Sequence record: OQ848593.1
Direction: 5' to 3' (one strand)
From: Pseudomonas phage Pa_WF01
Length of the DNA: 64,000 nt
Of this stretch, positions 23,881 through 61,886 are shown one piece after another. Positions within the stretch are counted from its first letter, which is position 1. Each line of letters begins with the position of its first letter. Below the pieces are notes generated by a model, which saw only the letters and a program-made list of their open reading frames with translations, did not search any database and was not told the origin of the DNA. A program made the translations under genes and the position numbers.

Positions 23881-23952
23881 GATGAAATTCCTAAGTAAAC
23901 AGTGAGTTGAGATGGTTTGGATTACCACCCCATGGCCGTAGGCCATGAGTAC

Positions 23953-24174
23953 TTACAGCAGACCAACCAAGTTGAAGAAGATGCACACTGCCCCAATCAG
24001 GGCGAACATCCCAGAGAAGGTCAGTACGTGCATCACAAGGATGTCGATCACCAGACCCATCCAGGTCTGTTGCATGGTGTAGTTGTTGCTGGACCACTTC
24101 ATGTAGCCGTTCAGGACGGCCACAGACGAAGCTATGTACAGGCACAACAGGATGAGGATTTCTACGTCAGTCAC
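23953..24174 (-). CDS. small membrane protein
   Basis: GTG start overlaps the upstream TGA (GTGA) and is preceded by GGAGGTTTGCT. Confidence 0.45.
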   Translation of the reverse strand: MTDVEILILLCLYIASSVAVLNGYMKWSSNNYTMQQTWMGLVIDILVMHVLTFSGMFALIGAVCIFFNLVGLL

Positions 24175-39247: not shown

Positions 39248-42942
<3,695 letters not shown>

Positions 42943-44508: not shown

Positions 44509-47500
44509 ATGGCTGATTTCGACTTGGATCAATTCCTGTCGGATCGTCAAGAGGCGAATGCCGGGGCTACCCCGGCATTCGACGCTCTGGACTTTGCCAG
44601 TGCGGGCCTGGACATGAAGGGTTCGCAGAAGGCTTACGACCTCGACGGCATCCGCGAGCGCAAAAAGCGCAACGTGGAAGAATCCCTCATCGGCAAGATG
44701 GGTATCACCCCTGGTGCTGCTGGCACTGAGATCCTCAACGCTGCTGCTTCCTTCGTATCCGGTACTGGCCGTGCTCTCGGCGACGTGATTGCTCTGCCGA
44801 TCAACGCTGCTGCTGACATGGGTCAGGCTGGCGTAACCAACGAAGCCATCGAAGCCTACAACCGCTACGTCTCCGGCCAGATGCAGGAAGGCGATGAAGC
44901 CATCCTGAGCCAGACTGCTGCCGGTGACGACGGTGTTCCCCAGACCATGCTGCAACGTATGCAAGGTGTGGACGAACTCCGCAAGCTTTCTACCAACGTG
45001 GACAAGTTCTTCGATTGGTCGAGCATCGTAGACACTACTCGCCGTGACCAACTGAGCGACGACATCGCTGATGCGACTGCTGGTGGCGTAGAACGTCTCC
45101 GCAATGCAGGTGAGTCCTTCAGCCGTGGCGAGATTCTGGATGGCTTGGTGCAAGGTGCACTCGGTGTTGGCCAGACCGCTGCTACCGCTATCGGTGCATC
45201 GGCAACCAACCCGCTGGCAGTCGGCGAGTACACTGTGGAAAACGCTCCGCAGATGCTGGCCTATGCCGCTAACCCTGTGCTGGGTGCTGCTACCAACGTG
45301 GGCTACGCCTCGGATGAATACCGTGAAGGCATCACCGAGTACCAGGCTGAGAACCAAGGCCAGCTGCCGGATGCTGACGATCGTCTGAAGATGGGTCTTG
45401 CTGCTGCTTCTCTGGCAGTAGCTGAGCAGGTAGCCGATGCTGGCATCCTGCGTGGTATCCGTGGTGAAGGTGGTGGTTTGATCCGCTCTACTCTTGGTTC
45501 CAGCGCTCGTGAAGGCGTGACCGAGGGTTACCAAACCTGGGGTGAGAACGTTGCTCACCTGAAAGACACCAGCCTGGAAGAGATCGTCGAAGCTGCAACC
45601 ATCGGTGCTGCTGTCGGCGGAACCATGAACATCGGTGGCCGTGCTGCTGTAGGTGCCCGCTCTGGTGCTACCCGTGCTGAGGCTGCTTTGGCTTCGCGTG
45701 AAGCTGTGAATGCTGCCCGTGAAACCGGCGACATCTCTGCCCTGACCGATGTGACCTCGGAGTCCTATAACCCTGCTGGTGCAGTGGTAGTTCTCCAGGA
45801 ACAAGTCATGGCTGACGGTGTGACCCAAGAGGTCAAGGACCGTGCCCTGGAGCAGGCTGACACCATCGAGCAGGAAGCTGCCCAGCGTGTATCTCAGCTG
45901 GAGCAGGAACAAGTACTGTTCAGCGAAGAAGGTCTGGCCAAGGTAGAGCAAGCCATCGAACAACGTGAGCAGGCCAAGCAAGGTGCTGATGAAGCTACCG
46001 TTGCTCGCCTGGACGAAGAACTGGCCAACCTGAGCGGCGTACGTGAGCAGATCCTCAACGTCACCCCCGAGCAACGCCAAGCTCAAGCCAAGGAACTGAA
46101 GGATGCCCAGCAGGTACTGACCGCTACCCGTGACGCCATCAAGCGTTTCCAAGTGGAAGCCGCTCCGAAGGCTGCCGAGGTAGAGACCTTGGTTCAGGAA
46201 GCTGCTGTACAACCGGAAGCCTCCGAGCGTCTGGTCACCCTGACCATGATCAACCCGGATGCACTGAGCCTGGAGCAGGTGGATGCTCTGGTAGCTGACA
46301 CCAGCAATACTCTGACCACTGAGCAGCGTGCATCCCTGCGTAGCTTCAGCGAAGCACAGGTTGCACTCAACGAACTCAAGGGTCTGAGCGGTGTTCGCAC
46401 TGACATCGAGACTGGTGGTGATGGCTTCAAAGGTCTGTCCCAGTACCGTAACGCTGTGCGTATGGCCCTGATGAACGGCAACGAAGAAGCTGCTGCTGGT
46501 CAGGTAGACCAACTGCGTGCTTTTGCTGACAGTCGTGTGGCGAAGTTCAACGCCATTGATGCTGCGTACCAGCAAGTCAAAGGTACCGATAACTCCATCC
46601 GTATCGTACGTGATGAAGCCGGTAACTGGACCGAGGCACCGGAGTCCATGACTGCACGCCAACTGAAGTCGGCTGGTGGTCTGGAGATCTCAGCCCGTTC
46701 CTTCAAGCTGCGTGATGCTGTAGCACTGGAAGCCACTGCACTGTCCCGCTCGGCTGAGTCTCTGGGTGAACTGGTCAAGGCCGGTCCTATTGCTCGTCCG
46801 GCCCCTGTGGTACAAGAAGCTGCCCCCGTACAGGAAGCGCCTGTACAGGTGGCTGAAGAGGTGGCCCCGGTAGAGGCGCCTATCGCTCAGGTCACTGAAG
46901 ATGTCCCAGTCAGTGAAGCCGAGTCGATCCAGGCAGAACCTTCTACCGAGGCCGAAACTGGTGAACTCACGGCTGTCCGTGAGGGTGAAGCTGTGCGTGG
47001 TCAGGAAGTTGCCGCCGAGAACTACCAGACTACCAACCTGGTTTCCGCCTTCTTCCAGCAGTCCCCGGCTCGCAATGACGGTGACACTCAGAAGCCTCTG
47101 GTAGCAGTCAAAGACTTCGCTACCAAGATCCGCACTGGTGAAGGTCGCATGGCTGAGTTCGCTGGTGTGAAGAGCTTCACCGGCCAGCAACAGTCCGCCA
47201 TCAAGCAGTTCATGAAGTTCCAGCGTGCTGCCAAGCCGATCATCGAGCGTACGCTGAAGCCATACACCTCGAAGACCAGCGATGCCAGCCGCTACTACTT
47301 CCGTGACTACGCTCAGTTCCTGGTGAACGCTGACGGTACTCTGGACGAGAACCTGGCCACTGCCATTGCCTACGGTGCGTACGACTGGGCTATCGATGCG
47401 GCCAACAACCTGGTCAACACCGATGCCGGTATCAATGCCATCCTGGGCAAGGACTCCGATGATGAAGTCTCCCCTGCTGCCTATGCAGTCCTGGGCAACG

Positions 47501-50500
47501 TAGGTACTCGACAGGCCACCGCAGCTTCCCAGCTGGGTGCCAAGATCGTTGATGTCCTTGGTTTGGAAGTCCTGCCGAATGCTCCTGTGAACGAGCGTGC
47601 ACGTCTGGAAGCTTCCCTGGGTGAGCATGCCTTGGCTCTTCTGGTGAAGATGGGCGTGGCGAAGATCACCACTGTCAGCGACGCCAAGCTGAAGTCCCTG
47701 ATGGACTCCAATGAACCGGCCAACCCCCGCGTCAAGCACTACTTCCTGACCCCGGTCAGTGAGCGTGTAGACGGCAAGCTGGTTCCGGGTGCAGTTGCTC
47801 GCCAGATCCGTGAAGCCAATACCGGTAGCCAGTCCATCCTGGCCAAGCTGTTCGGTTCGACTGAAGGTCAGACTGAGCCGAGCTTCACTCCTGTGCCCTT
47901 CACCCAGAAGAACGCCAAGCGTACTCAGCAGCCTGTTCCCAAGGAACTGGCCAAGATCCTGGACGACGCAGGTAAGCGTCCCATGCGTCTTCGCCAGGAC
48001 ATGTACCAAGTGTGGGGCAACCTGTCCGAGAACGCATTGGCCACCATCGCTGGTGCTGTAGACATCGAAGGCGGGTTCGTACACAAGGCCAACCGTGCTG
48101 GCACTCAAGCCAAGAACGATGGTCTGGTACGTCAGATCGACAACTTCAACGAGTTCTTCGGCCGCATCCAAGAGGTTTCTGACCTTGGTTTGGAGCAGCC
48201 GCTGTACTTCGACCGGAGCGTGTGGAAGCCTCAGCGTGTTGGTTTGACTGCCAACATGATCAACCCGCAGACCAGCAAAGTGCATCGTCACATGCTGGCA
48301 ATGGAAGGCTGGGAGAACACCATCAATCTGTCCAACAAGGCAGAGATGGATAGCTTCAAGCTTCGCGTACTGGAGTCCTTCGGTGTGAAGACCGAGGGCA
48401 ACAACACTTCGAAAGTGCTGGCCAAGTACGACAGCAAGGTGAACACCCCGGCGATCCAGGCTGGTGTATCTGCCCTGGCTGAGATCCTCCGTGGTGAGGC
48501 CCAAGACACTGTGGCCAACGAGTCCGCAATCCTGGCAGCCGTAGCCGAAGCTGGTGAGAAGTTCTTCAGCTTGGATGGCTTGGTAGCACTGGCTCAAGAG
48601 AAGATCGCCCGTGATAACGGTGCTGAGTCCTTCACTACCCAGCTGCTCGGCGAAGTGGACGGTGTGACCAACGGTCCTATGCTGTCCCTGCTGATGTCTG
48701 GTGCCAAGGGTTTTGACACTCTGAACCAGGGTGGTTTCTTCAGCCTGGAAGATCCGTACACCCAGTTCAACGACTACAAGGCACAGGGCAACCTGGACCT
48801 GTACGAGGGCACCATCAAGGCTGTGCTGGACCGTCTGGGCAATGAACCGCTGCTGTCCTCTGTGGAAGTCATCACTGGTGTGCTGACCAACGAGGAAGGC
48901 GGTGTATCGTCCAAGGGCCGTAACGTCATCAAGAAGCCCCTGACCGCAATGATGTTTGGTTCCAACACCAAGACTGCTGTCAGCGGTATGGCTGATGCCT
49001 TCATCGAAACCATCTACTCCAAGATGGAAGACGCTGCCAATGCTGGTGACCAAGCTGCCCTGTCCAAGGTGATCTCTGCTGTAAACAGCCTGATCGCCTC
49101 GAAGAACAGAGACAAGCGTCAGCTGTGGCCTACCGACATGGGCTTCGAGCAAGCACTGAATACCGTCTACTCTCCGGTCCAGCAGACTGCCATCAAGGCA
49201 GCCTTCTACGACCTGCTGGGTAGCAAGGTAGAGAGTGCCCTGAACGACACCTACGAGGTATTCATCGCTCGCCGGGACACCATCAACAAGACTGCGAACA
49301 TGGCTTTCCAGATGTACGAAGCTGTCTTCCAGGCTCGTCGTGATGAGCTATTGGCTTCGGCCAACCTGCCTCGTGGCAATGATGGCCAGCCTTTCGCTGA
49401 CCTCACTCGTGCCCAGATCGACCAGATCCGTAACGAGTTGAAGGACATGGAGCCGATCCTGCACACCGCTTTCTCGAAAGCCAGCGGTGACTTGGATTCT
49501 GGGATGCTGATGGCGAAGACCCGCCGTGAACTGAACGACTCTCCCCTGTACCGCTCGGAAGTCCACTTCGCTGAACCTCTGGAGTTCACCGATGAGGAAG
49601 GCCGCAAGCAGTCTGTGAAGAGCTTCCGTGCCAGTGGCATGACCACCGTCAACGAAGGTCCGGGTGTAGCTCCGTTCATCACTGCTACTCACGCAGGTGA
49701 CTCGTTCATCTCCCACAATGCACTGATGGGCGAAGATGTCCTGAACATCCACGATGCTCACGGTGTGGGCGTACTGGGTATGGATGCTGCTGGTCAGCGT
49801 CTGAACGAACAGACCTTCAAGCTGATGCTGAATTACTCGGCAGCCAGTGAGATGGTTTCGACCTTCGAGCGTACCCTCGCTGGCTTCAGCAAGTGGGTAC
49901 AGGATCCGCAGGTTGCACGTCAGTTCGGCAAGTACCTGGAAAGCCAGAAGACTACCGTCTCCACTCAGCTGGCCAGCATCCGTCACGTCGCTGAACAGGC
50001 TGACACCGACAAGCTGAACATGCTGGCCAACATGCGTGCAGTGGGTCAGTACGCCACTGATGGCGGTAGTTACATCGTCACCGATGCTGACCGTGCTGCT
50101 GCTGTGAAGGCCCGTGAAGAGATCGGTAGCACCTTCAACCCTGAAGCGGAAACGATGGCTGATGCTATCGACGCTCAGCTGAAGGCTACTCCGCGTGAAG
50201 CCAAGCCCGCTGCTCGTAAGCCTCTGCGCAATGACTCGGTACAGTCCCTGGCTCCGGCTACTACGCTGAACACCATGGACCGCACCAAGGCTGAAGGTCA
50301 GCTGCAACAGGACATTCAGCAGGTAGCCCAGGTGATGAAGAAGTCCAACCTGAGCTTGGAGTCTGCCAAGGAAGTCCTGCCGGAAGATCGTGCTGCTGAA
50401 GTGGTCCAGGCCGTTCAACAGAACAGCCGTGCCAAGACCTCGGTATGGGGTGAACTGGGTCAGCCGGTAATTCCGTCTGACCAAGCACTGGTGGATCTAC

Positions 50501-53500
50501 TTACCGAAACCAATGACCTGACCACTCGTGGTCTGGCTGAGGCTCTGATAGCCCGCACCAACGATCCTTTCCGTAAGCAGGTGCTTCGTGCTGCTCTACG
50601 GTCCATCCGTGAAGATGTACCGGTCAAGCTGGTCACCTCTACCACTGGCCCTGACGGTGCAGTTGGTGAGGGTGTGAGCAAGGCTCGTGGTTGGTACGCA
50701 ACCCGTGGCAACTTCGAGGCTCTCTACGTGAAGAGTCCTGAGTTCGTAGAGTCTGGCATCACTGAAGAGATGCTGACCCATGAACTGCTGCACGTTAGCC
50801 TGGGTCGTACCATCCAGCGCGAACTGGACAAGAAACAATCCAATGCCAACTACGACTCTGCTACTTGGCGTATGGTCAATGACCTGGAGATGATCCGTGC
50901 TCGTGCCAGCGACATGCTGAGCAAGAACGGTGGCTTGTCTTCCAAATACGCCAACGCTGTCTCGAACGTGCATGAGCTTGTCAGCTGGGGCATGACCAAC
51001 CAAGGCTTCCAGGAAGAAGTCCTGAAGAAGTTGGAGATGCCTGCTGGTAAGCGTGACGCTGGTTTCACTGACGGGCTGCTGCGGTTCATTCGTAACCTGA
51101 CTGCCCTGCTGTTCCGTGACACCAAGCCGTCCGATACCAATGCCATGGCTTTGGTGATCAGCAATACCTCTGGCTTGTTCGCCGAAGCTGCTGCACAGAT
51201 GGCCAAGCGTAGCGACCTGACCTTGAAGTACGAGGACGCTGTAGATCAGGTCAACGCGATGAGCAGTGAACAGATCTTCAATGCCCTGGAGAGCGAGAAG
51301 ACCCCGCTTACCGAGGCTCATAGCAACAAGCTGAAGTCTGTCCTGAACAGCATCGTCACCGAACTTTACGGTCCCATGGGTGCATTCCGCAACGAGGTTG
51401 CTCGTGGTCAAGCACTGACCACCACTGATGCTGTCCTGAAGGCTCTGGACACTGGCCGCCTGCCCTTCGCCTCTCAGGCATTGGCTTCGGCGTTCATTAT
51501 CAGCCCGCAGGAAGCCTACGTGCTGGAACAGGTTGAGGCTACTGTGGCCACCACCCTGAACAGCAACGATGGAATCTTCATCCGCAGTAGCCTGGAGAAC
51601 CTCTGGCGTGAAGCCAAGGATCGCCTGACTGCTAAGGACTTCTTCGCTGGTGATTGGGACCAAGCCACCCAAGCAGAGAAGGATGTGGCACAGGAGAAGT
51701 ACAACTTCCTGTTCCGTCCTGAGCGTGTTGGTTCCCGTAGTGACTACCTGAGCCGCTTTGCTGCCCTGGGTGTAGCGAGCCAAGAAGTAGCGAACCTGCT
51801 TCAGTTCACTACCCGTAGCAGCGAGAAGTCCTTGGCTGGTATGCCACTGGCTACTCGTCTGGTTGAGATGTTCCGCCGTCTGCTTACCCGCCTGGGTCAG
51901 CTGCACGACAAGACTCGTCCTGGTGAGGTGGCTGAGAGCCGACTGTTCACCCTGGTGGATCGTCTGGTGGATATCGAAGCCAAGCGTCGTGGCCGTCTGG
52001 CTGACCAGAAAGTGGGTGCCCTGGACCAGGTGGAAACTGCCCTGGCGAACACTGGTGAAGCCATCAAGGACAACCTGAACCGGATCGCTGAATCTACCTT
52101 CTTCACTCAGTCGAGCAGCCCCTTTGTTCGGGTAGCTGGCAAGACCATAAGCACCATCACCAATGAGCGTGTTGGCTTGGTCCTGGACGGTATCACTCGC
52201 ATCCGTGACAACGCTTTCAAGAGCCAACACGGCATGGCTATGCAGGTAGTGAACGAGATGCGTGGTGCACACGAGGGTAATCTCGCTGCACACACTCTGT
52301 TCAAGCAAGCCAAGTCCAACGAGATGGCTCGTAAACAGCACATCGAGTACACCGCTGCGATGATCAATGAAGGCTTCAAGGACAATGGCCAGTACCTGAG
52401 CACTGAAGACCGTGCTGCTCTGACCAAAGGTTTCCTGCGTACCAACATGGGTAACCTTCGTGAAGCCCTGGGTATGGATCGGTTGAAGGAAGTCCTTCTG
52501 GACAATGGCGAATTCGCCAATCTCCGCAAAGACCTCGAAGACCAACTGCTGGCATTGCCGAACGGTCAATATTTCCTGGGTGCTGTGAAGGATCTGGCTT
52601 ACCACCGTGTGATTGGTGGCAACGTAAGCCCGAACCTGATGCTGAACAGTGCGAACATCGCAGACATGCTCGGTACCAAGCGTGTGCTCCAGTCCTCCAA
52701 GGCAGATCGTGCGAAAGCCATCGAACTGCTGGACCAGCTGCAAGCTGTCTATGGGTGGGAGTACTCTGGTTCCCAGGTGAAGAGCCGCGCCCGTGAAGTG
52801 CTGAAGACCGAATCCAACCGTACCGATGGCAACGGTGTGGATCTGATCCTGGCCATGCACCATGGCTTGGGTAAGCGCTCCAAGGATGCCCTGTTCCAAG
52901 GCACCGAACGTCTGTACACCGATGGTTATGTACCGGACATCTTCGACTCCAAGATCGAAGTGCTGGCCGTAGACCGCAGTGACCTGCCCTACTTCCAGAA
53001 GCGTGGCTACGCTGTTGCTGGTGACGTGCAGGTAGACCAACGTGCTGGTCTGGAATCCGACAAGGTTCTGGTGACCCGTCGTGGTAGTGGTCAGGTTGGC
53101 TTGCTGACTGGTGCGATGAGCTACACCGGTGTGCATGCTCGTGGTACCAAGGTGGACCGTCAGGCTACCAACATGCTGTCGTCCGCTCCGGGAACTGCGA
53201 AGAACGCCATCACTACCATCAAGCGCAACATTGCACAGGATGTGAGTGACATGTTCCTGCGTGATCGTTCCTACGATCCTCGCCAGCAGAAGCCTGGCCG
53301 AGTATCTCCTGTGGTGAACCCGAATGGAGCCATCGTGGACTACCGCTATACCATGACTGAACACAACCGTGACAGTCTGCTGGATCGTGATAACTCCATG
53401 GAACAGGTGCTTGGTACTCTTGCAGGTCAGATCGTGGACAAGGTTGACTCCGCAATCCAGAACGCTGACGTTGTTCGTGCTATGTACGACCAGTTCCGCG

Positions 53501-54705
53501 AGGATTACGCCAACCGTCCCAGCAGCTACCTGGTAGTAGGCAAGGACAGCACTGATCCGCAACTGCTTGAGTTGTACCAACTGCTGCCGGAGAGCACTAA
53601 ACGTGAGATCCGTAAGACTTGGGGTAGCGACAACATGCAGATCCCTGCTGATCAGCTGAACATGATCATGGGTTACCGCAAGTACAGTCTGACTACTCCG
53701 TTTGGTTTGGCAGAAGACGAACGCAACATTGCCGAGAAGGTACTAGTTCGTGTTGCTGAAGCCATCCTGGGAGAGAAAGCTGCACTTCGCATTGGTCGTG
53801 CTGAGGATGTGATGCAGGAACTGGTCCGTGAAGCCAAGGACATCCTGGTAATCAAGAACATCACCACTCTAGTAGGCAACATTGTGTCGAACATGACTCT
53901 GTTGGCTTGGGAAGGTGTTGGCTTGACTGAGGGTGTACGTGCTCATGCTACCGGCATCAAGGCTGCTCTCCAGTATCGTCAGGACAACAAGAAGCTTATC
54001 CAGCTTCAGCGTGCACTCGACGTTGGTTATCTGCCCTCCGGTGAGCAAGCTGTTCGTGATGAGATCGCTGTGCTGATGGATCGCCTGAGTCGCAACCCGA
54101 TCAAGCCGCTGGTAGATGCTGGACTGATGCCGACCATCGTAGAAGATGTGGAAGCTAATGACTCGCAGTACAGCTACAAGTCTCTGCTCCAGAAGAAGGC
54201 TGAGAAGTACACCAGTAAGCTGCCGAAGTTGGTTCGGGACATTGGTCGTCAGGTCTACATGACTCACGACACTGCTGTGTACAAGTTCCTGAGCCAAACC
54301 ACTCAGCTGAGTGACCTGGTTGCTCGTTACGCTCTGTATGAGCACCTGACTACTCGTGCGAAGGATCCGCTGAGTAAAGCTGATGCACTGCGTCAGGCTG
54401 AAGAATCGTTCATCAACTACGACTTGCCTTCTGGCCGTGGTCTTCAGTTCATGAACGACATGGGTCTGGTGATGTTCACCAAGTACTATCTGCGTGTGCA
54501 GAAGGTGATCGCTCGCTTGATCCGTCAGAAGCCTGCTCGTGCACTGGCTCTGGTTGCTGCCAACTACTTTGTGAGTGGCTTGCAGTCGGTAATGGATAGC
54601 TCTTGGATCAACCGGATTGGGCACAACCCGTTCCAGTCTGGTCCGTGGTCCTGGCCATCCAGCTTGAGCGAACTACCAGGTATCAAAGGTCTGATGAACC
54701 TGTAA
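44509..54705 (+). CDS. virion-encapsidated RNA polymerase (vRNAP), N4 gp50-like
   Basis: Single 3398-aa ORF. A central T7-like RNAP region carries a motif-C-like NIHDAHGVG and a motif-B-like K..MMFGSNTK. A giant single gene of this size is diagnostic of N4-like phages. Confidence 0.9.
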   Translation: MADFDLDQFLSDRQEANAGATPAFDALDFASAGLDMKGSQKAYDLDGIRERKKRNVEESLIGKMGITPGAAGTEILNAAASFVSGTGRALGDVIALPINAAADMGQAGVTNEAIEAYNRYVSGQMQEGDEAILSQTAAGDDGVPQTMLQRMQGVDELRKLSTNVDKFFDWSSIVDTTRRDQLSDDIADATAGGVERLRNAGESFSRGEILDGLVQGALGVGQTAATAIGASATNPLAVGEYTVENAPQMLAYAANPVLGAATNVGYASDEYREGITEYQAENQGQLPDADDRLKMGLAAASLAVAEQVADAGILRGIRGEGGGLIRSTLGSSAREGVTEGYQTWGENVAHLKDTSLEEIVEAATIGAAVGGTMNIGGRAAVGARSGATRAEAALASREAVNAARETGDISALTDVTSESYNPAGAVVVLQEQVMADGVTQEVKDRALEQADTIEQEAAQRVSQLEQEQVLFSEEGLAKVEQAIEQREQAKQGADEATVARLDEELANLSGVREQILNVTPEQRQAQAKELKDAQQVLTATRDAIKRFQVEAAPKAAEVETLVQEAAVQPEASERLVTLTMINPDALSLEQVDALVADTSNTLTTEQRASLRSFSEAQVALNELKGLSGVRTDIETGGDGFKGLSQYRNAVRMALMNGNEEAAAGQVDQLRAFADSRVAKFNAIDAAYQQVKGTDNSIRIVRDEAGNWTEAPESMTARQLKSAGGLEISARSFKLRDAVALEATALSRSAESLGELVKAGPIARPAPVVQEAAPVQEAPVQVAEEVAPVEAPIAQVTEDVPVSEAESIQAEPSTEAETGELTAVREGEAVRGQEVAAENYQTTNLVSAFFQQSPARNDGDTQKPLVAVKDFATKIRTGEGRMAEFAGVKSFTGQQQSAIKQFMKFQRAAKPIIERTLKPYTSKTSDASRYYFRDYAQFLVNADGTLDENLATAIAYGAYDWAIDAANNLVNTDAGINAILGKDSDDEVSPAAYAVLGNVGTRQATAASQLGAKIVDVLGLEVLPNAPVNERARLEASLGEHALALLVKMGVAKITTVSDAKLKSLMDSNEPANPRVKHYFLTPVSERVDGKLVPGAVARQIREANTGSQSILAKLFGSTEGQTEPSFTPVPFTQKNAKRTQQPVPKELAKILDDAGKRPMRLRQDMYQVWGNLSENALATIAGAVDIEGGFVHKANRAGTQAKNDGLVRQIDNFNEFFGRIQEVSDLGLEQPLYFDRSVWKPQRVGLTANMINPQTSKVHRHMLAMEGWENTINLSNKAEMDSFKLRVLESFGVKTEGNNTSKVLAKYDSKVNTPAIQAGVSALAEILRGEAQDTVANESAILAAVAEAGEKFFSLDGLVALAQEKIARDNGAESFTTQLLGEVDGVTNGPMLSLLMSGAKGFDTLNQGGFFSLEDPYTQFNDYKAQGNLDLYEGTIKAVLDRLGNEPLLSSVEVITGVLTNEEGGVSSKGRNVIKKPLTAMMFGSNTKTAVSGMADAFIETIYSKMEDAANAGDQAALSKVISAVNSLIASKNRDKRQLWPTDMGFEQALNTVYSPVQQTAIKAAFYDLLGSKVESALNDTYEVFIARRDTINKTANMAFQMYEAVFQARRDELLASANLPRGNDGQPFADLTRAQIDQIRNELKDMEPILHTAFSKASGDLDSGMLMAKTRRELNDSPLYRSEVHFAEPLEFTDEEGRKQSVKSFRASGMTTVNEGPGVAPFITATHAGDSFISHNALMGEDVLNIHDAHGVGVLGMDAAGQRLNEQTFKLMLNYSAASEMVSTFERTLAGFSKWVQDPQVARQFGKYLESQKTTVSTQLASIRHVAEQADTDKLNMLANMRAVGQYATDGGSYIVTDADRAAAVKAREEIGSTFNPEAETMADAIDAQLKATPREAKPAARKPLRNDSVQSLAPATTLNTMDRTKAEGQLQQDIQQVAQVMKKSNLSLESAKEVLPEDRAAEVVQAVQQNSRAKTSVWGELGQPVIPSDQALVDLLTETNDLTTRGLAEALIARTNDPFRKQVLRAALRSIREDVPVKLVTSTTGPDGAVGEGVSKARGWYATRGNFEALYVKSPEFVESGITEEMLTHELLHVSLGRTIQRELDKKQSNANYDSATWRMVNDLEMIRARASDMLSKNGGLSSKYANAVSNVHELVSWGMTNQGFQEEVLKKLEMPAGKRDAGFTDGLLRFIRNLTALLFRDTKPSDTNAMALVISNTSGLFAEAAAQMAKRSDLTLKYEDAVDQVNAMSSEQIFNALESEKTPLTEAHSNKLKSVLNSIVTELYGPMGAFRNEVARGQALTTTDAVLKALDTGRLPFASQALASAFIISPQEAYVLEQVEATVATTLNSNDGIFIRSSLENLWREAKDRLTAKDFFAGDWDQATQAEKDVAQEKYNFLFRPERVGSRSDYLSRFAALGVASQEVANLLQFTTRSSEKSLAGMPLATRLVEMFRRLLTRLGQLHDKTRPGEVAESRLFTLVDRLVDIEAKRRGRLADQKVGALDQVETALANTGEAIKDNLNRIAESTFFTQSSSPFVRVAGKTISTITNERVGLVLDGITRIRDNAFKSQHGMAMQVVNEMRGAHEGNLAAHTLFKQAKSNEMARKQHIEYTAAMINEGFKDNGQYLSTEDRAALTKGFLRTNMGNLREALGMDRLKEVLLDNGEFANLRKDLEDQLLALPNGQYFLGAVKDLAYHRVIGGNVSPNLMLNSANIADMLGTKRVLQSSKADRAKAIELLDQLQAVYGWEYSGSQVKSRAREVLKTESNRTDGNGVDLILAMHHGLGKRSKDALFQGTERLYTDGYVPDIFDSKIEVLAVDRSDLPYFQKRGYAVAGDVQVDQRAGLESDKVLVTRRGSGQVGLLTGAMSYTGVHARGTKVDRQATNMLSSAPGTAKNAITTIKRNIAQDVSDMFLRDRSYDPRQQKPGRVSPVVNPNGAIVDYRYTMTEHNRDSLLDRDNSMEQVLGTLAGQIVDKVDSAIQNADVVRAMYDQFREDYANRPSSYLVVGKDSTDPQLLELYQLLPESTKREIRKTWGSDNMQIPADQLNMIMGYRKYSLTTPFGLAEDERNIAEKVLVRVAEAILGEKAALRIGRAEDVMQELVREAKDILVIKNITTLVGNIVSNMTLLAWEGVGLTEGVRAHATGIKAALQYRQDNKKLIQLQRALDVGYLPSGEQAVRDEIAVLMDRLSRNPIKPLVDAGLMPTIVEDVEANDSQYSYKSLLQKKAEKYTSKLPKLVRDIGRQVYMTHDTAVYKFLSQTTQLSDLVARYALYEHLTTRAKDPLSKADALRQAEESFINYDLPSGRGLQFMNDMGLVMFTKYYLRVQKVIARLIRQKPARALALVAANYFVSGLQSVMDSSWINRIGHNPFQSGPWSWPSSLSELPGIKGLMNL

Positions 54706-56352: not shown

Positions 56353-56790
56353 TTAGCTGAAGAGGCTACCACCGGTGCTGGCCGGGGCTGCTTGTTCGGC
56401 TGCCGGCTCTTCTTCCTTGGCTTCCACCTCGGTAGCCGGTTCCGGCTCTTCGGTGGCTACTTCGACCGGCGCTTCTTCGCTTGCCTTGGATTCGGCAACG
56501 GCAGCTGCCAGGCCGGCGGCCGCTTCGGTGTTGACGACTTTCTTCTCGGCCTTCTTCGGCTTCTCGGCCACTTCCGCAACCTGCGGTTCGGTAGCGACCG
56601 GTGCCTTGGTGCCGACCAGGCTGGCTACGGCCAGTTCCGGTACTTCGACGAAGGCCACGATGCCGCCGTCGCCCTTGCGGGTGGTCTGGAAGGAGATGGT
56701 CAGCTGGGAAGCGTCGGCTTTCAGGCCGTTGGCGGTCAGGTAGGTAGCGATGCCAGCGGCGACTTCGGCTTGTTGCAGTTCGATTTTCAT
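56353..56790 (-). CDS. hypothetical protein: structured N-terminus plus long A/E/P/K-rich linker ending in SLFS
   Basis: AAAGGAACCAAG precedes the ATG. Its C-terminal ..GGSLFS matches the tail of the SSB-like protein. Confidence 0.5.
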   Translation of the reverse strand: MKIELQQAEVAAGIATYLTANGLKADASQLTISFQTTRKGDGGIVAFVEVPELAVASLVGTKAPVATEPQVAEVAEKPKKAEKKVVNTEAAAGLAAAVAESKASEEAPVEVATEEPEPATEVEAKEEEPAAEQAAPASTGGSLFS

Positions 56791-56801
56791 CTTGGTTCCT
56801 T

Positions 56802-57362
56802 TTAAGTGAGCATGGCCAGGGCCAGCTTGAAATCATTGTGATGGAAGACCCCATACTCGGCTGCTGCACAGGCATCCGCCATGTGCTCAGCCCGACTGGC
56901 GATCACTTCCCCTTTCGGGGTCATGGGCCAATTGAGATGGGGGTATTTCTTGACTGCCCATTCGATCATGGCCTCCTTCGAAGCGGTCTTCGAATTACAA
57001 GCCATGACCTTCAGGTCAGTTGGAGTGAGCAGGTGGAAGGGCTTGCCGCTTGCTCTCACGGCAGAGAGGATCCCAATGCACATGCCGTAGCTTTTCATGG
57101 CTGCGGCAGACTGGGATCCTACAGGCACTTCCACGAATATTACGTTGGCTTCCTTGATCACCTCCATGACTCTGGTGGTGATCTCGGTAGACCGGTTCAA
57201 GTCATCGCTGTTGACGCGAATCTGCTTGTCCTTGGTCTTGGAAGTCTTGATGACTTCGATATGCCGTAGGCTGAGGGTGTTGGAGGTTGTGTCGTACTGA
57301 CCGCAGGCTAGACCCCAGTTGCTCATGCTGGGGTCCATGCCGACTACGTTCAGTCTTGCCAT
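56802..57362 (-). CDS. RuvC-like Holliday junction resolvase
   Basis: RuvC-like blocks MARLNVVGMDPS.., EVPVGSQSAAAMKSYG and AEHMADACAAAEYG. Confidence 0.65.
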   Translation of the reverse strand: MARLNVVGMDPSMSNWGLACGQYDTTSNTLSLRHIEVIKTSKTKDKQIRVNSDDLNRSTEITTRVMEVIKEANVIFVEVPVGSQSAAAMKSYGMCIGILSAVRASGKPFHLLTPTDLKVMACNSKTASKEAMIEWAVKKYPHLNWPMTPKGEVIASRAEHMADACAAAEYGVFHHNDFKLALAMLT

Positions 57363-57793
57363 TGCTTCAGCCGCTCTTCGAGGATCTCGATGAGGTTACG
57401 CTGAGCAGTCTCCTGCTGTTCCAGGAGGCTGTAGGCGTACTCCGGGATGTCCACGGCAGCATCAGTATGCAGCAGGTTGGACAACCTTTCTTGCCGCTCA
57501 CGAAGCTCCTGGAGTTCCAGTTTCAGCCGTTCCCGTGCACCCATTCTCCGCTTGTGCAGCTTCTGCATGAGTTCGTAGCCGGCGAACTTCCACACCTCGT
57601 CTTCAGCGTTACGACGAGCGATCTCGATTCCGATCTCGGCATCGAATTCATCGGGGTCCACACAGGATGACTGCCCGGTGACCGTCCAGCCGTTGACCAG
57701 GGTAAGCTGGCATACGGTGGTCAGGCCGCTGGGAAGGATCGTGAAAGACTCTTCCACGATCATGTTCTTCACGTCTTGCGGGTTGACTTTCAT
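57350..57793 (-). CDS. hypothetical protein
   Basis: 147-aa ORF. Confidence 0.45.
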   Translation of the reverse strand: MKVNPQDVKNMIVEESFTILPSGLTTVCQLTLVNGWTVTGQSSCVDPDEFDAEIGIEIARRNAEDEVWKFAGYELMQKLHKRRMGARERLKLELQELRERQERLSNLLHTDAAVDIPEYAYSLLEQQETAQRNLIEILEERLKQWQD

Positions 57794-58155
57794 TCGCTAC
57801 CTCCAAGTAGCTCCAGCTGTTTTCTCAGCCGGGTGATCTCTTCCCGTAGCTTCTTGGTTTCCTGGTAGGCAAACCAAGATGTCCCCTTGCTATAGCTTGC
57901 CATGATGGTCTTCACTTCTTCGGGGGTCAGTACGGTGAGCTTGATGTCGGAATTGGGTTCACAGAACATCGAACCGTCATCCCAATCGAAGCCAGGAACC
58001 ACACTTAGCACATCCACAGATGGCCTCGCCCCGACAGTTCCGGGGCGAAGGACAGGGATGCGTAAGGTGTGGTCCAGCAACCGTTCGCGTTGTTGCGGGT
58101 TCGTGCAGTAGCTCAACTGCCGCTTCAACGAATCGAGCAGTTCCCGGACCTTCAT
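57790..58155 (-). CDS. hypothetical protein
   Basis: 121-aa ORF. Confidence 0.45.
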   Translation of the reverse strand: MKVRELLDSLKRQLSYCTNPQQRERLLDHTLRIPVLRPGTVGARPSVDVLSVVPGFDWDDGSMFCEPNSDIKLTVLTPEEVKTIMASYSKGTSWFAYQETKKLREEITRLRKQLELLGGSE

Positions 58156-58158
58156 GGC

Positions 58159-58905
58159 TTAGCTGAACAGGCTTGCGGGCTTACCGCCACCTGCTTGGCC
58201 GCCAGCCGGTGCAGGACGACCGGAGGCTGCGCCGCCACCAGCGACCTTCTTGGACTTGTCGCGGACGGTGCCAGCCTTGGCTTCTTTCCACTTGTCGAAG
58301 AACTCGGGTTCAGCCTTGGCACGGGCTTCGTTCAGGGTCTTCTTGGTGCCGAAGTGGAAGACCGCCGCCACGTCGTTGGATTCGCGGGTTTCCGACGAAT
58401 CTTCGTACTGGCCGGTGGCTTCGTTCTTGACGCGCTTGTTCTCGATGATCTTCTCCAGGGCCAGGTAGATGTCCTTGCCGGTCAGGTCGGTGAGGACCGG
58501 AACCTGCTTGGGTACTTCGGCCTTGGCGTCGAAGTCGTAGATCTTCAGGGTGCGCTGTTCCGGCACACAGGCCGCCAGTTCTTTTTCGGCGGTCATGAGG
58601 CAGATGGCGTTGACGATGTTGAAGCCCGGTAGATAGTGCTTCTCGCCTTCGGCGTTCACGTAGTAGTTGTTCTGGCCTTTTTCCTTGTTGCTGGTCACGT
58701 ACTGCTGAATCTTCAGCTTGCGACCGGTGCCGTGCTCTTCGAACTCGAAGTTCACTGCCAGTGCGCCCCCGGAGGATTCGGAGCCGTAGGCGGCCAGGAT
58801 CTTGAAGGCGTAGATGTCGGTGTCGAAGATGCGGCTGCCGCCACCGATGCTGTCCTTGGCTTCCTTGATGTCGCTGTTGTTGCTGGTGCTGAGGTTACCG
58901 AACAT
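58159..58905 (-). CDS. single-stranded DNA-binding protein (N4 gp45-like, putative)
   Basis: 248 aa with a Gly-rich disordered tail ending in PASLFS. AAAGGAAACAGCACT precedes the ATG. Position next to the AAA_24-like and primase genes matches N4. Confidence 0.5.
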   Translation of the reverse strand: MFGNLSTSNNSDIKEAKDSIGGGSRIFDTDIYAFKILAAYGSESSGGALAVNFEFEEHGTGRKLKIQQYVTSNKEKGQNNYYVNAEGEKHYLPGFNIVNAICLMTAEKELAACVPEQRTLKIYDFDAKAEVPKQVPVLTDLTGKDIYLALEKIIENKRVKNEATGQYEDSSETRESNDVAAVFHFGTKKTLNEARAKAEPEFFDKWKEAKAGTVRDKSKKVAGGGAASGRPAPAGGQAGGGKPASLFS

Positions 58906-58931: not shown

Positions 58932-59666
58932 TCAGTTGTAGTACCAGTCCAGATGGTCAAGAACCTTCTGGATGTCGTTGTCGATGTAGGTCTGCTCGTG
59001 CGTCCACATACCCATGGGACCACGAATGCGCTCACCGACAGTTTCCTTGGTGATCTGCGTCTGGAAGACGTGCTTGTAGCCAAGCATTTCCTCCTGCGGC
59101 GTGATCTCCAAGAGCTTGTTGTTCTCCTTGAACGGCTCCAGCTTCCCGAGTTCTACCTTCTTGGTGGAGATCACCGTGGAGAAGTAGGACTCAATGCCGT
59201 TGTTCTTCAAGGCGCCCTTGACCGGAACGCACACGTCCATGGCCATGGTTGCCTTGTTGTACTCTTCCTTGGTGTGAGCCAGGAAGATCACCTTGCAGGG
59301 ACTGCTGGCAACCTTCTGTTGCATCAGATCCTTGAAGAACTGCTGGAAATCCATCCACGCAGCTTGCCCGTTGGCAGCCCGGTAGATGTACTGGGACTCG
59401 TACATGTCCAGCAGGTAGGTGAGGGTGTCGATGATGATGGTGTGGGCTTCTACCTTTCCCTCCACCACTGCATCGAAGACAGTGGGGATCTGGTAGGGAT
59501 CGGTCACCGTCCGCTCGATGAAGCGAGACTTGAACGGCAGCCGCTTACCGGCTTCGCAGTTCAGGTAGATGACCTTCTCCGGCTCCCGGAGATTCCGCAG
59601 ACAAGCAGACTTGCCAGTAGCGGACAGACCGGAAACCAAGACCAGATGGTCGTTCACTTGCGTCAT
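58932..59666 (-). CDS. AAA_24/Sak4-like P-loop ATPase
   Basis: Walker A GLSATGKS and Walker B IIIDTL. Start at MTQVND, preceded by GGAGTCAATC; the ORF-track start lies 12 nt upstream. Confidence 0.55.
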   Translation of the reverse strand: MTQVNDHLVLVSGLSATGKSACLRNLREPEKVIYLNCEAGKRLPFKSRFIERTVTDPYQIPTVFDAVVEGKVEAHTIIIDTLTYLLDMYESQYIYRAANGQAAWMDFQQFFKDLMQQKVASSPCKVIFLAHTKEEYNKATMAMDVCVPVKGALKNNGIESYFSTVISTKKVELGKLEPFKENNKLLEITPQEEMLGYKHVFQTQITKETVGERIRGPMGMWTHEQTYIDNDIQKVLDHLDWYYN

Positions 59667-59714
59667 GATTGACTCCATGTTGGAAGCGAAAGGGTGCCGG
59701 AGGCACCCCTAAGC

Positions 59715-61886
59715 TCAGTTGCCGTTGGCCCCGGCTTTCTTGGCTACAGAGACCATGATGGTGGAAGCGATCTCGATCTCCGTCAGCTTGTCAGCCATCT
59801 TCGAGTTGAGTTCGTTCACCTTGCCGTGGATTGCGTTGACGCTGAAGCCAGCATCCAGAAGGATCATCGCGTAGCGGAGCAACATGTTGTTCCTGTTGCC
59901 GTCGCCGGTGTTGTTGATTACCCAACGCTCCAGCTTGTCCATGGACGCTTGGTCCTTCAGGTTACGCCGACGTTCTTCATCCTTGGTGGTCTTCGGAATG
60001 AAGGGCAGTGCGTCGAACAACTCACCGTCCAGATACTCGTAGTGACCGGCGTGAGACAGCCACTTGCGAGCACGCTGACCGACGCCATCGTCCACCTCGA
60101 AAGGCAGGGATTCGATGACGGCGTTGTAGAACTCCTTGTACTCCTTGGCGTCCATCTTCAGGGTGTAGTTCAGCGGCAGGATGATACGGAAGCGATCACC
60201 GTTGCCGTCCGTCTGATGGCGTTTCGTGGTGTACAGAAGAGCCTTGTAGCCCTTCAGGAATTCCTTGGCCGTGGACAGCTTGCACCCATGGTCAATGTCG
60301 ATCACCAGCAGGTTGAAACCAACCCGGCAGTTCTCTTCATTGCGGTGACCCTTACGCTCTTCTCCACCATTGAGGTGGTGGTTGATCCAGTGGATGCCAT
60401 TGGCTTGGGTCATCTTCCACAGGTCATCCCAAGTAGCGAGATCGTTGAAGTAGCCGTACGCGATGTCCTGCGAGTAGGCCACGATCATGCTCTTGTCATG
60501 GATGTCGGTGGCTTGGAGTGCTTCCCCACGGAGGAACATGATGTCCTGCTCGTAGGTCTTCTTGATGATGATGTTGTTCTTGTAGCCCCAGGCAGTAGCC
60601 ATCACCAGCATGTCGTCTTTCTGCTGACGTGAGCCACGGTAGAACGGGAGATCTTCATCCAGTTCAGCCACGGTGGTTTCCGCGTTGGTGGCAGCCAGGT
60701 ACTTCGCCAGCTTCACGTAGGGACGATCCCTGGTCATGAGCATGTCGAAGCACTCACCCGATTCCTCGGCAACCTTGATGGCCGCATAGAGGTGATCCAT
60801 GGTGAGTACCGGCGAGTCGTCCACGAAAGCATAGGCACCTGCCAGCTTGAGAGCCTTGAAGTACCGGTGCGTCACTTCTGCTTTCTTGGCTTCCTGGTGT
60901 TCCGGTAAGCCTGCTGCGATCTTCTCGCACTTGAGCTTGTACTCGATGGACAGCAGAGCGGTGTCCTTGTCCATGGTGAGCACGCGACGCATGTTGCTTG
61001 CGTCTGCCAGACGTTCCAGATCATCGCAGAGATCTTCGATGAAGGTAGAGGTGGAGTTCTTCGTCATGAGGTCGTAGACCTCTTCTGGAGTCATGTCCAC
61101 CTTCTTGCCTTCACCAGCCATACCGAAGAAACAGCGTCGAGCATAGCCAGTCTCCAACAACTCCATCAGCTGGTCCTCGGTCTTGCCGCCGTCCAGCAGC
61201 TTACCGGGAGTACCGAAAGCCATGAGGTTGGTGGGAGTGCGGCCGATGATCTCTTCGCCTCTAAGGTTGTCGTTGGTGTTCTTGACCAGTTTCTGCTTGA
61301 CCGAACCCACGTCGAACAGTTCAAGGAACGTCGGCATGATCTCGGTCATGGCAGGCAGGTTCAAGCCAATCTCATCGACGACGAGGTTGACTGCACCAGC
61401 ATTGGCCATCAGCAGCTTGTGACGCATCTGCTTGACGGCTGGGCCAGTGCCCGAGTCGAAGTCGTACAGCAGGGGGCCGAGAGACTTGAACTCCTTACGG
61501 ACAGCTTCCTGCTCGTCGGGCAGTTCGGACCCCTTTCGGATGTGGCGCTTGAACGCCAGATCGTCGAGGTGCTTCTCGGCTGCGGTGTCGAAGGTTTCCA
61601 TGAACCGATGGCGGAAGCCATAGGTAATCTGGTCCTCCATCACCTTCGTGGAGAAACCCTTACCTGCACCCGAAGGCATCAGGTTGAGGGCGTACATGTT
61701 GACCGGAATCTCGCCGCGTTCGTGAGTCTTGATGTGGCAACGCATGTGCGCTGCCATCATCGAGAACTGGAAGCCAACCAAGATCCTGAAGAACTTGTGG
61801 TTCTTGGATTGGGTCTTCTCGCACAGAATTTCGACGATGCGTTCCGAGGTCGGGTGGTGTTGCATTTCCTCGTACTTGAGCATCAC
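59715..61886 (-). CDS. DNA primase with N-terminal P-loop ATPase domain
   Basis: 723 aa. N-terminal Walker A LMPSGAGKG and Walker B LVVDEIG. C-terminal primase-like LLVIDIDHG..ALLYTTKRHQ..DRFRIILPLN. Confidence 0.6.
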   Translation of the reverse strand: MMLKYEEMQHHPTSERIVEILCEKTQSKNHKFFRILVGFQFSMMAAHMRCHIKTHERGEIPVNMYALNLMPSGAGKGFSTKVMEDQITYGFRHRFMETFDTAAEKHLDDLAFKRHIRKGSELPDEQEAVRKEFKSLGPLLYDFDSGTGPAVKQMRHKLLMANAGAVNLVVDEIGLNLPAMTEIMPTFLELFDVGSVKQKLVKNTNDNLRGEEIIGRTPTNLMAFGTPGKLLDGGKTEDQLMELLETGYARRCFFGMAGEGKKVDMTPEEVYDLMTKNSTSTFIEDLCDDLERLADASNMRRVLTMDKDTALLSIEYKLKCEKIAAGLPEHQEAKKAEVTHRYFKALKLAGAYAFVDDSPVLTMDHLYAAIKVAEESGECFDMLMTRDRPYVKLAKYLAATNAETTVAELDEDLPFYRGSRQQKDDMLVMATAWGYKNNIIIKKTYEQDIMFLRGEALQATDIHDKSMIVAYSQDIAYGYFNDLATWDDLWKMTQANGIHWINHHLNGGEERKGHRNEENCRVGFNLLVIDIDHGCKLSTAKEFLKGYKALLYTTKRHQTDGNGDRFRIILPLNYTLKMDAKEYKEFYNAVIESLPFEVDDGVGQRARKWLSHAGHYEYLDGELFDALPFIPKTTKDEERRRNLKDQASMDKLERWVINNTGDGNRNNMLLRYAMILLDAGFSVNAIHGKVNELNSKMADKLTEIEIASTIMVSVAKKAGANGN

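Follow-up and report, generated by a model that had tools for sequence, protein, structure and literature searches.

Phage N4's single-stranded DNA-binding protein (SSB; N4SSB) is known as an activator of late transcription: for this activity its binding of single-stranded DNA (ssDNA) is dispensable, its C-terminal residues are essential, and it contacts the conserved C-terminal region of the β′ subunit of the host RNA polymerase (RNAP) (PMC4496689). A second description concerns phage Ab09, where a preprint of June 2026 (10.64898/2026.06.04.730250) reports a locus made of gp57 (SSB), gp58, gp59 (Acb4-Sequestin), gp60 (Bes1, RuvC-like) and gp61 (Bes2), and in which gp59, gp60 and gp61 each restored evasion of type I and type II Thoeris and of CBASS II-A. 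Bes1 and Bes2 neither bind nor cleave the immune signals, and the authors proposed that they may aid phage development rather than inhibit defence directly. The terms 'motif', 'C-terminus' and 'SLF' do not occur in the text of the preprint, which gives no mechanism for Bes2, and the literature that we searched beyond it does not mention the Bes proteins. Here we analysed 64,000 nucleotides (nt) of Pseudomonas phage Pa_WF01 (OQ848593.1), a stretch that we call the window, in which the SSB and a 145-amino-acid (aa) protein related to N4 gp47 and Bes2 both end in the residues S-L-F-S. The comparisons described below suggest that this tip is a docking motif common to the SSB and to a tail module of the phage Holliday-junction resolvase.

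The genes of both proteins are located on the minus strand, in a replication and recombination block that adjoins the gene of a 3398-aa virion RNA polymerase (vRNAP). A first-pass annotation of the window had pointed out the two open reading frames (ORFs) with their identical ends, and both were read directly in the sequence: the SSB ends in GGQAGGGKPASLFS (..GGGKPASLFS), and the 145-aa protein ends in AAPASTGGSLFS (..STGGSLFS) after a stretch rich in Ala, Glu, Pro, Val and Lys. The two genes and their parts are as follows.

58159..58905, minus strand: SSB of the N4 gp45 family, 248 aa, equivalent to LIT1 gp62 and Ab09 gp57 (PHROG 743, E 5e-90, full length).
58174..58260, minus strand: SSB linker, about aa 216-244, disordered, basic, rich in Gly, Ala, Lys and Pro; low-complexity and variable in homologs.
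58162..58173, minus strand: SSB tip S-L-F-S, aa 245-248; family motif K-K-P-x-(S/T)-S-L-F-(A/G/S)-COOH.
56353..56790, minus strand: gp47/Bes2-like protein, 145 aa (PHROG 7564, unknown function).
56635..56790, minus strand: N-domain of the gp47/Bes2-like protein, aa 1-52, with helix 7-20 and strands 31-36 and 44-49 (AlphaFold with a multiple sequence alignment).
56368..56634, minus strand: linker of the gp47/Bes2-like protein, aa 53-141, acidic, rich in Ala, Glu, Pro and Val, disordered (predicted local distance difference test, pLDDT, about 45-55).
56356..56367, minus strand: tip S-L-F-S of the gp47/Bes2-like protein, aa 142-145, invariant in 15/15 Litunavirus homologs.

The tip is the only conserved element of either tail, whose linkers drift in sequence, length and charge. 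A hydrophobic pair [L/I/M/V]-F, nearly always within S-L-F, was found 1-6 residues from the C-terminus in 116 of 117 distinct SSB tails and in 113 of 119 distinct gp47-like tails, so that the outcome which the first-pass annotation had named as a refutation, tails that vary freely among relatives, was not seen at the tip of either protein. The SSB tips follow the pattern (in %) K45 K72 P82 T51 T40 S98 L100 F100, then A, G or S, and the gp47-like tips follow S88 L92 F100, then G, S or N; position -4 is T in 51%, A in 17% and K in 8% of the SSBs, and T in 42% and G in 20% of the gp47-like proteins. This comparison marks the tip as a conserved functional element of the SSB and of the gp47-like protein alike. 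The linkers that carry it are oppositely charged: per 32 residues, the net charge is about +4.6 in the SSBs, whose linkers are rich in Ala, Gly and Lys, and about -6.2 in the gp47-like proteins, whose linkers are rich in Ala, Glu, Val and Pro. The idea of one SSB-style tail on both proteins thus holds for the tip and fails for the tether: the 145-aa protein does not simply duplicate the tail of the SSB. Its acidic tether could make contacts of its own with the DNA-binding surface or the basic tail of the SSB.

The SSB of the window is 33% identical to N4 gp45 over its full length (BLASTP, E 9e-38), and homologs were found by tblastn in 457 phage records, with alignments to relatives that end at residue 216. 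Its core matched no Pfam family at E≤0.01, and a profile search recovered no sequence relative in the PDB. Nearly all of 62 SSB homologs with 33-54% identity end in K-P-x-x-S-L-F plus 1-6 residues. In an alignment of 28 sequences that are 34-57% identical to the window SSB, L246 and F247 were invariant and S245 was conserved in at least 90%, and the 30 residues before the tip consisted of unalignable Gly, Ala, Lys and Pro. N4SSB itself ends in AAKSLFGKK. Candidates for SLF-tipped SSBs outside the N4-like phages, on contigs of 105 kb and 242 kb, were rejected as they proved to be ordinary N4-like loci with a vRNAP gene.

The 145-aa protein, in which the first-pass annotation had seen a mimic of the SSB architecture, is not a second SSB-like protein. 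It is 94% identical over 145 aa to Ab09 gp61, and sequence comparison assigns it to the N4 gp47 family, which makes it the Bes2 of Ab09. The copies returned by a direct database search, 15 in number, were all from Litunavirus; their N-domain and their STGGSLFS are invariant, and indels in the linker between the two give proteins of 126-149 aa. A single-sequence HMMER search of the N-domain against 1.84 billion representatives returned only LIT1 gp66 and one dubious match, and the family became visible only because iterative searches were run on fetched loci. We fetched 80 IMG/VR loci around SSB homologs, and jackhmmer, with the first 64 residues of the 145-aa protein as its query, yielded 62 ORFs, among them N4 gp47 (E 9e-16), nearly all ending in (T/S/G)-S-L-F-(G/S/N). 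The gp47 of PMBT57 matched the 145-aa protein in BLASTP as well (E 1e-6). The family N-domain, of which the window protein has a homologous copy, comprises about 52 aa with the consensus MQIQLKQ.EI..ALK.YI..QGI.L.GK.V.I.FTAGRK. A profile of the N-domain alone, searched against a collection of 5.8 billion proteins, found 78 further members. In 71 of them [SGTN][LIM]F stands close to the C-terminus; among the seven that lack the tip, two appear truncated. When 33 gp47-like proteins were aligned, F144 was one of only five invariant columns.

AlphaFold, run with the 33-sequence alignment, gave a folded N-domain at residues 1-50, with helix 7-20 and a β-hairpin (pLDDT 75-86), and a disordered remainder in which confidence rose slightly at the tip. 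Together with the comparison of the tails, this model bears out the architecture that had been proposed, in which a folded domain is followed by a disordered linker with a short hydrophobic tip at its end. A Foldseek search of the helix-hairpin fold against the PDB gave nothing below E 0.1, in agreement with the preprint (10.64898/2026.06.04.730250). Residues 1-21 of the family (56730-56790, minus strand), a strand followed by a helix, showed a weak profile match to the ribosome-associated inhibitors YfiA/RaiA (E 0.02-0.05), probably a chance β-α similarity. Many metagenomic gp47-like proteins (loci L028-L080) have the motifs IPGF(T/S)(D/E) and KP(A/V)L(T/S)VV in the linker just past the N-domain; both are missing or degenerate in the Litunavirus protein.

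N4 itself is an apparent exception to the tip rule, because its reference gp47 (NC_008720.1, 31678-32112) is annotated with the end ..KPNLLCLQV (YRKKRLKNQYKPNLLCLQV). In the same-species phages PMBT57 (L089, 701-1144) and AlfredRasser (L090, 701-1132) a homopolymer run is longer by one A, and gp47 has the family-typical end EPVQAKPSLFAGLKR. The reference, with an A-run shorter by one nucleotide, is therefore frameshifted, through either a sequencing error or a strain mutation, and this frameshift has hidden the second carrier of the tip in the reference genome. In other lineages the tip appears to be repeated: the linker of the gp47-like protein of Presley (L094, 5813-6454) contains four internal tip-like copies K-R-(S/T)-F-G, with flanking Lys/Arg, besides its terminal RKTVFGKR, and the Ruegeria phage V13 protein (L093, 4813-5736) contains one internal SKNLFGD, which suggests multivalent tips in some lineages.

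Translated in six frames, the window gives 489 ORFs with a length of 40 aa or more, and the SSB and the 145-aa protein are the only real genes among them that end in SLF. A third candidate at 23891..24145 on the minus strand, ending in NSLFT, was discarded as non-coding, since its composition is not gene-like and its match in LIT1 (3087-3317) is located inside the annotated gp11 and gp12 (3058-3279 and 3351-3536) and stops before the tip. By a rough estimate, about 0.05 identical pairs of C-terminal 4-mers are expected among some 90 proteins, so that the shared 4-mer alone is borderline and coincidence within one genome is only mildly improbable; a comparative test was thus needed. Across 5786 six-frame ORFs from the 80 related loci, the window and the reference loci, SLF was found within the last nine residues of 143, of which 81 were SSBs, 48 were gp47-like proteins and 14 were others. 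Duplication or gene conversion of the tail between the two genes found no support, since DNA similarity 5′ of the SLFS codons did not exceed a codon-shuffle control (p 0.15). The large ORFs that lie downstream of the block in two metagenomic relatives and are presumed by size and position to be their vRNAPs (L040, 13179-15575, minus strand, 798 aa; L078, 9093-17024, minus strand, 2643 aa) end in ..GLSLFK, and the window vRNAP ends in ..GIKGLMNL; GLSLFK here probably belongs to a folded C-terminus and has nothing to do with the tip.

A strong indication of a common partner comes from phages that depart from S-L-F, because these departures occur in both proteins of the same phage. Representative pairs are listed below.

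pVco-7 (Vibrio): SSB tip DSPLFP; gp47-like tip DAPLFP.
V13 (Ruegeria): SSB tip KKSSLFDD; gp47-like tip KKSSIFDAE.
Presley (Acinetobacter): SSB tip KRQFFKR; gp47-like tip RKTVFGKR.
PA152 (Luzseptimavirus): SSB tip SSLFGD; gp47-like tip AGLFGG.
N4 species: SSB tip KSLFGKK; gp47-like tip PSLFAGLKR.
Zuri (P. putida): SSB tip KSLFANKK; gp47-like tip PSLFAGLNRPKNS.
RHph_N38 (Rhizobium): SSB tip PSLFGKK; gp47-like tip KKSIFGNAS.
Metagenomic locus L084: SSB tip SDVDIFDD; gp47-like tip TEIDFDDT.

In a permutation test on 57 unique cognate pairs, positions -5 to +4 around the Phe were scored with the L and F columns excluded. The mean score of the cognate pairs was 12.1 against 7.7±0.6 for shuffled pairs, and none of 5000 shuffles reached the value of the cognate pairs. 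The extension after the Phe likewise showed an association in length between SSB and gp47-like protein (odds ratio 6.3, p 0.02), although both statistics ignore the kinship of the phages. Kinship is insufficient to explain the likeness of the tips, since two different proteins would not grow alike by shared ancestry alone. As the motif is the sole conserved element of the tails and changes in step in both proteins, the SSB and gp47-like tips very probably address one pocket. The suggestion of the first-pass annotation that both proteins engage the same partner is thereby strongly backed as far as one common partner is concerned; RNAP, implied by its reference to late transcription in N4, is one possible partner, and the need for the N4SSB C-terminus in that activation is as it stated (PMC4496689).

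The gp47-like gene is closely linked to the gene of the Holliday-junction resolvase. The neighbouring genes of the block in the window are the following.

59715-61886, minus strand: primase, part of the replication block.
58932..59678, minus strand: Sak4-like RecA-type ATPase of the N4 gp44 family, immediately upstream of the SSB gene (PF13479, E 1e-9; PHROG 124 'Sak4-like ssDNA annealing protein', E 6e-47).
57790..58155, minus strand: hypothetical protein of 121 aa, homolog of Ab09 gp58, cargo without the tip (PHROG 6026, unknown function).
57350..57793, minus strand: Acb4-Sequestin-type fusion, 147 aa, homolog of Ab09 gp59 (PF13876, E 1e-23; PF21825, E 2e-11).
56802..57362, minus strand: RuvC-like Holliday-junction resolvase, N4 gp46 / Ab09 gp60 'Bes1' (PHROG 159, E 1e-48).

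Forty loci include 3.5 kb or more of DNA downstream of the SSB gene, and a gp47-like gene is present in every one of them; 38 also hold a RuvC-like gene, and there the gp47-like gene is each time the very next one. The gap between the two was -25 to +25 nt in 34 of these 38 loci, and the other four overlap only because the longest-ORF calls extend upstream; in the window the gp47-like gene starts 12 nt past the end of the RuvC-like gene. The DNA between the SSB and resolvase genes varies from 0.1 to 2 kb and is the site of cargo such as Acb4-Sequestin. N4-like phages of Vibrio, Ruegeria and Rhizobium have a RusA-like resolvase instead, with the gp47-like module (domain, acidic linker and tip) fused at its C-terminus, giving proteins of 265 aa in JSF3, 307 aa in V13 and 231 aa in RHph_N38. 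The gp47 profile matches the V13 fusion at residues 146-179; the PHROGs of the fusions (21721, 14238, 1682 and 33948) are labelled RusA-like, and stand-alone gp47-like proteins (PA152, PMBT57) match their C-terminal halves. In pVco-7 a RusA-like ORF is followed by the separate ORF that ends in DAPLFP, whose N-terminus resembles gp47 by eye only and matched neither the gp47 profile nor the PHROGs. That a non-homologous resolvase in the same position has kept or absorbed the module argues for functional coupling, and on these gene arrangements gp47/Bes2 is best described as a detachable tail module of the phage Holliday-junction resolvase. This link points to a role of the 145-aa protein in recombination and replication at least as much as in transcription.

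As to the setting of the block, Litunavirus genomes (VB_PaeP_VL1, DL64, LIT1, PEV2 and others) match it at 97-98.5% identity and identify the window as a LIT1/Ab09-like Litunavirus, one of the N4-like phages of Pseudomonas aeruginosa in the Schitoviridae. Compared with LIT1 (NC_013692.1) it is the reverse complement and circularly permuted; the early genes are located on the minus strand at about 1-26 kb and the vRNAP gene on the plus strand at 44509-54705. The order of the Sak4-like and SSB genes was also found in metagenomic relatives. PF13876 is the N4 gp49 / Sf6 gp66 family and PF21825 is Sequestin, and Ab09 gp59 is an Acb4-Sequestin cyclic-nucleotide sponge, a function taken from the preprint (10.64898/2026.06.04.730250); the corresponding gene of the window is variable cargo between SSB and resolvase and stands outside the tip system. 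In the record of Zuri (MK863032.2, 843-3459) the product names are apparently displaced by one gene, with the Sak4-like protein labelled as DNA primase, the SSB as DNA repair protein, the RuvC-like protein as ssDNA binding protein and the gp47-like protein as Holliday junction resolvase.

The deletion mutant Ab09Δ57-61 deserves a separate look. It lacks the DNA from 51 bp of the 3′ end of the SSB gene through most of gp61 (positions 41,096-42,899), and it grows well (10.64898/2026.06.04.730250). In the Ab09 genome (NC_024140.1) we found a 7-nt microhomology, CCGGCAG, at both ends of the deletion (41096-41102 and 42899-42905). A deletion mediated by this microhomology would remove 1803 bp in frame and leave an SSB that ends in GRPAPAAKQAAPASTGGSLFS, which is the last 16 residues of Bes2 after a shared Pro-Ala; if the coordinates are taken as inclusive (1804 bp) a frameshift results instead, and the text of the preprint fits either. 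The SSB of the mutant thus probably keeps an SLFS tip, as a natural tail swap with Bes2. If this reading is right, the mutant is no test of tip loss, and the tips would be interchangeable, as they are in T4.

The explanation that best accounts for the whole, to which we give a probability of roughly 60% from the sequence comparisons, is a common docking motif on the SSB and on the resolvase tail module that is recognised by one partner. The core of the motif would be S-L-F, one small residue and the C-terminus, often with Lys in front, presented on a disordered tail of both proteins. The two tails would enter the same pocket, and the most likely task of gp47/Bes2 would be to deliver the resolvase, or pass it on, to wherever the tail of the SSB is bound while recombination-dependent replication proceeds; co-recruitment, or competition with the SSB over the pocket, could achieve this. 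On this view Bes1 and Bes2 would act on CBASS and Thoeris indirectly, through faster or cleaner DNA maturation or a shifted timing of late genes and not through destruction of signals, which is speculative. As partner we would prefer a co-evolving phage protein, such as the adjacent Sak4-like ATPase, the SSB core or the polymerase/primase, since the lineage-specific co-variation of the tips favours one; the C-terminal region of host RNAP β′ would come next, favoured by the near-invariance of SLF and by the precedent of N4; and the host β clamp would come third, as a match to positions 3-5 of QL[S/D]LF keeps it a candidate even though the key Gln is missing.

Several points weigh against this explanation, besides the kinship that the co-variation statistics leave aside. 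Bes1 alone or Bes2 alone rescues a mutant that lacks both, and Bes2 is dispensable when host immunity is absent (10.64898/2026.06.04.730250). Bes2 therefore cannot be solely an obligate adaptor of Bes1, and a model in which it acts only as an adaptor is weakened. A comparison of charges aimed at the partner gave a mixed pattern: the Sak4-like proteins of the acidic-tipped L084 lineage have lost three conserved acidic and two conserved basic positions, and no charge reversal was seen. That S-L-F hardly changes in phages of α-, β- and γ-proteobacteria is what a highly conserved host target, β′ or clamp, would lead one to expect, more than a diverging phage protein would. In a rival explanation, which follows the first-pass annotation, the tip is a determinant of activation that binds β′, and gp47/Bes2 competes or co-activates with the SSB at host RNAP and so tunes late transcription. 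SLF, present in N4SSB, is the only conserved element of the tail, the contact of N4SSB is with a highly conserved region of β′ (PMC4496689), and such a target would account for the same SLF in phages of very different hosts; late genes that are damped or retimed, including the tail fibres that activate Thoeris II, would also fit the Bes2 phenotype (10.64898/2026.06.04.730250). What makes us regard this rival as rather unlikely is that there is no obvious reason why RNAP should be the docking site of a resolvase module that three lineages carry in fusion with RusA-like enzymes, and that lineage-specific co-variation (PLFP, QFF/VF, DIFDD) is unexpected with an almost invariant β′ site. A hybrid for the Schitoviridae as a whole, in which the SSB and the resolvase (through the gp47/Bes2 tail) alternate on the late-gene site of β′, competition of the tails times replication, junction resolution and late transcription, and evasion of CBASS and Thoeris is a by-product, seems to us somewhat more doubtful still.

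The tip may also be read as a degenerate motif for the host β sliding clamp, by which the SSB and the resolvase module would be held on DnaN at the replication forks of the phage. S-L-F corresponds to positions 3-5 of the bacterial consensus QL[S/D]LF, and such motifs are often C-terminal on flexible tails, as in QLSLF of PolC (PMC12309361). The highly conserved pocket of the clamp would agree with the invariance of SLF, but the Gln at position 1, which together with positions 4 and 5 is most critical for binding (PMC12309361), is missing; T, A or G stands in its place, next to a polar residue at position 2. QFFKR, IDFDD and similar variants are unlike clamp motifs as well, and overall we judge the clamp to be an improbable partner. 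The clamp-binding peptide of the RB69 polymerase is KKASLFDMFDF, and the archaeal resolvase Hjc binds PCNA; N4 replication was reportedly found by Guinta et al. in 1986 to be largely independent of host replication proteins. Finally, the shared ending could be compositional or coincidental, or could serve independent purposes, for example as a protease degron, with no common partner. The shared 4-mer in a single window is only marginally unlikely, as estimated above, and the similarity of the tail DNA is within what composition gives, but conservation throughout both families, restriction to these two families and co-variation by lineage leave hardly any room for this view, and its plain form as a coincidence is effectively refuted. 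The docking motif read by one common partner thus remains the explanation that we favour.

Compared with the Ab09 locus, the window encodes the same protein in the same order of SSB, gp58, Acb4-Sequestin, RuvC-like resolvase and Bes2. The preprint treats these genes as an anti-defence hotspot, whereas here gp46 and gp47 appear as a core pair throughout the family, with a tip of SSB type. Bes2, an immune-evasion factor of non-sponge mechanism, consists of a small domain on an acidic tether that ends in the tip of the phage's own SSB, and it is best regarded as a trans-acting, sometimes fused, tail of the resolvase Bes1; both are testable leads, and the interpretation of Ab09Δ57-61 changes if its SSB probably keeps a tip. 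N4SSB is a homolog of the window SSB, and SLF is a candidate for its activation determinant. No second protein that shares the N4SSB tip has been described before, and the 30-year-old question of how this C-terminus is recognised is revived by a defined SLF core and by a further, putative ligand that nature provides for that site.

From the canonical bacterial SSB C-terminus (SSB-Ct, DDDIPF) the tip differs in that it is not acidic and its Phe is not the last residue. Both share a folded core, a disordered linker and a short hydrophobic tip that recruits partners, but the SSB-Ct is acidic and exposes the carboxylate of a terminal Pro-Phe, whereas the window SSB has K-K-P at positions -7 to -5 and a basic linker; 1-6 residues follow the Phe in every tail that we examined, and acidic tips are confined to the rare lineage L084. 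In HK620 the SSB is a distant homolog of N4SSB and its gene is located beside that of a Sak4-type ATPase, as in the window, and its last six residues (NDYPPF) are required for loading Sak4 on SSB-coated ssDNA (PMC5928155); this tip resembles DDDIPF of E. coli and not SLF, and no second, resolvase-linked carrier has been described there. In T7 the similar tails of gp2.5 (SSB) and gp4 (helicase-primase) bind the same basic patch of the DNA polymerase, and the gp4-tail peptide DTDF served as template for placing the gp2.5 tail (PMC12339929); the T7 tails are acidic with the Phe last, whereas here residues extend beyond the Phe and the SSB tail is basic. The likeness to T4 is in gp43, gp55 and gp33: their C-terminal tips are hydrophobic, highly similar and interchangeable, their linkers diverge and vary in length, and all three dock on one hub, by which replication and late transcription are coupled (PMC2988020). 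As in this T4 type, two proteins of one phage were found here to have tips that are nearly identical and linkers that are variable and unstructured. T4 differs in that its tips combine hydrophobic with acidic character and have as their target a clamp encoded by the phage, whereas here the flanks are mostly basic and the second carrier is a resolvase module and not a sigma factor or co-activator; the LIT1 annotation contains no phage sliding clamp, and not all proteins of the window were scanned for clamp folds. The principle of shared C-terminal handles is thus known from T4 and T7 and is here, in its form, extended to the whole N4-like family, which would be the third phage family with interchangeable C-terminal handles on its replication proteins, and one in which such a handle reaches a resolvase.

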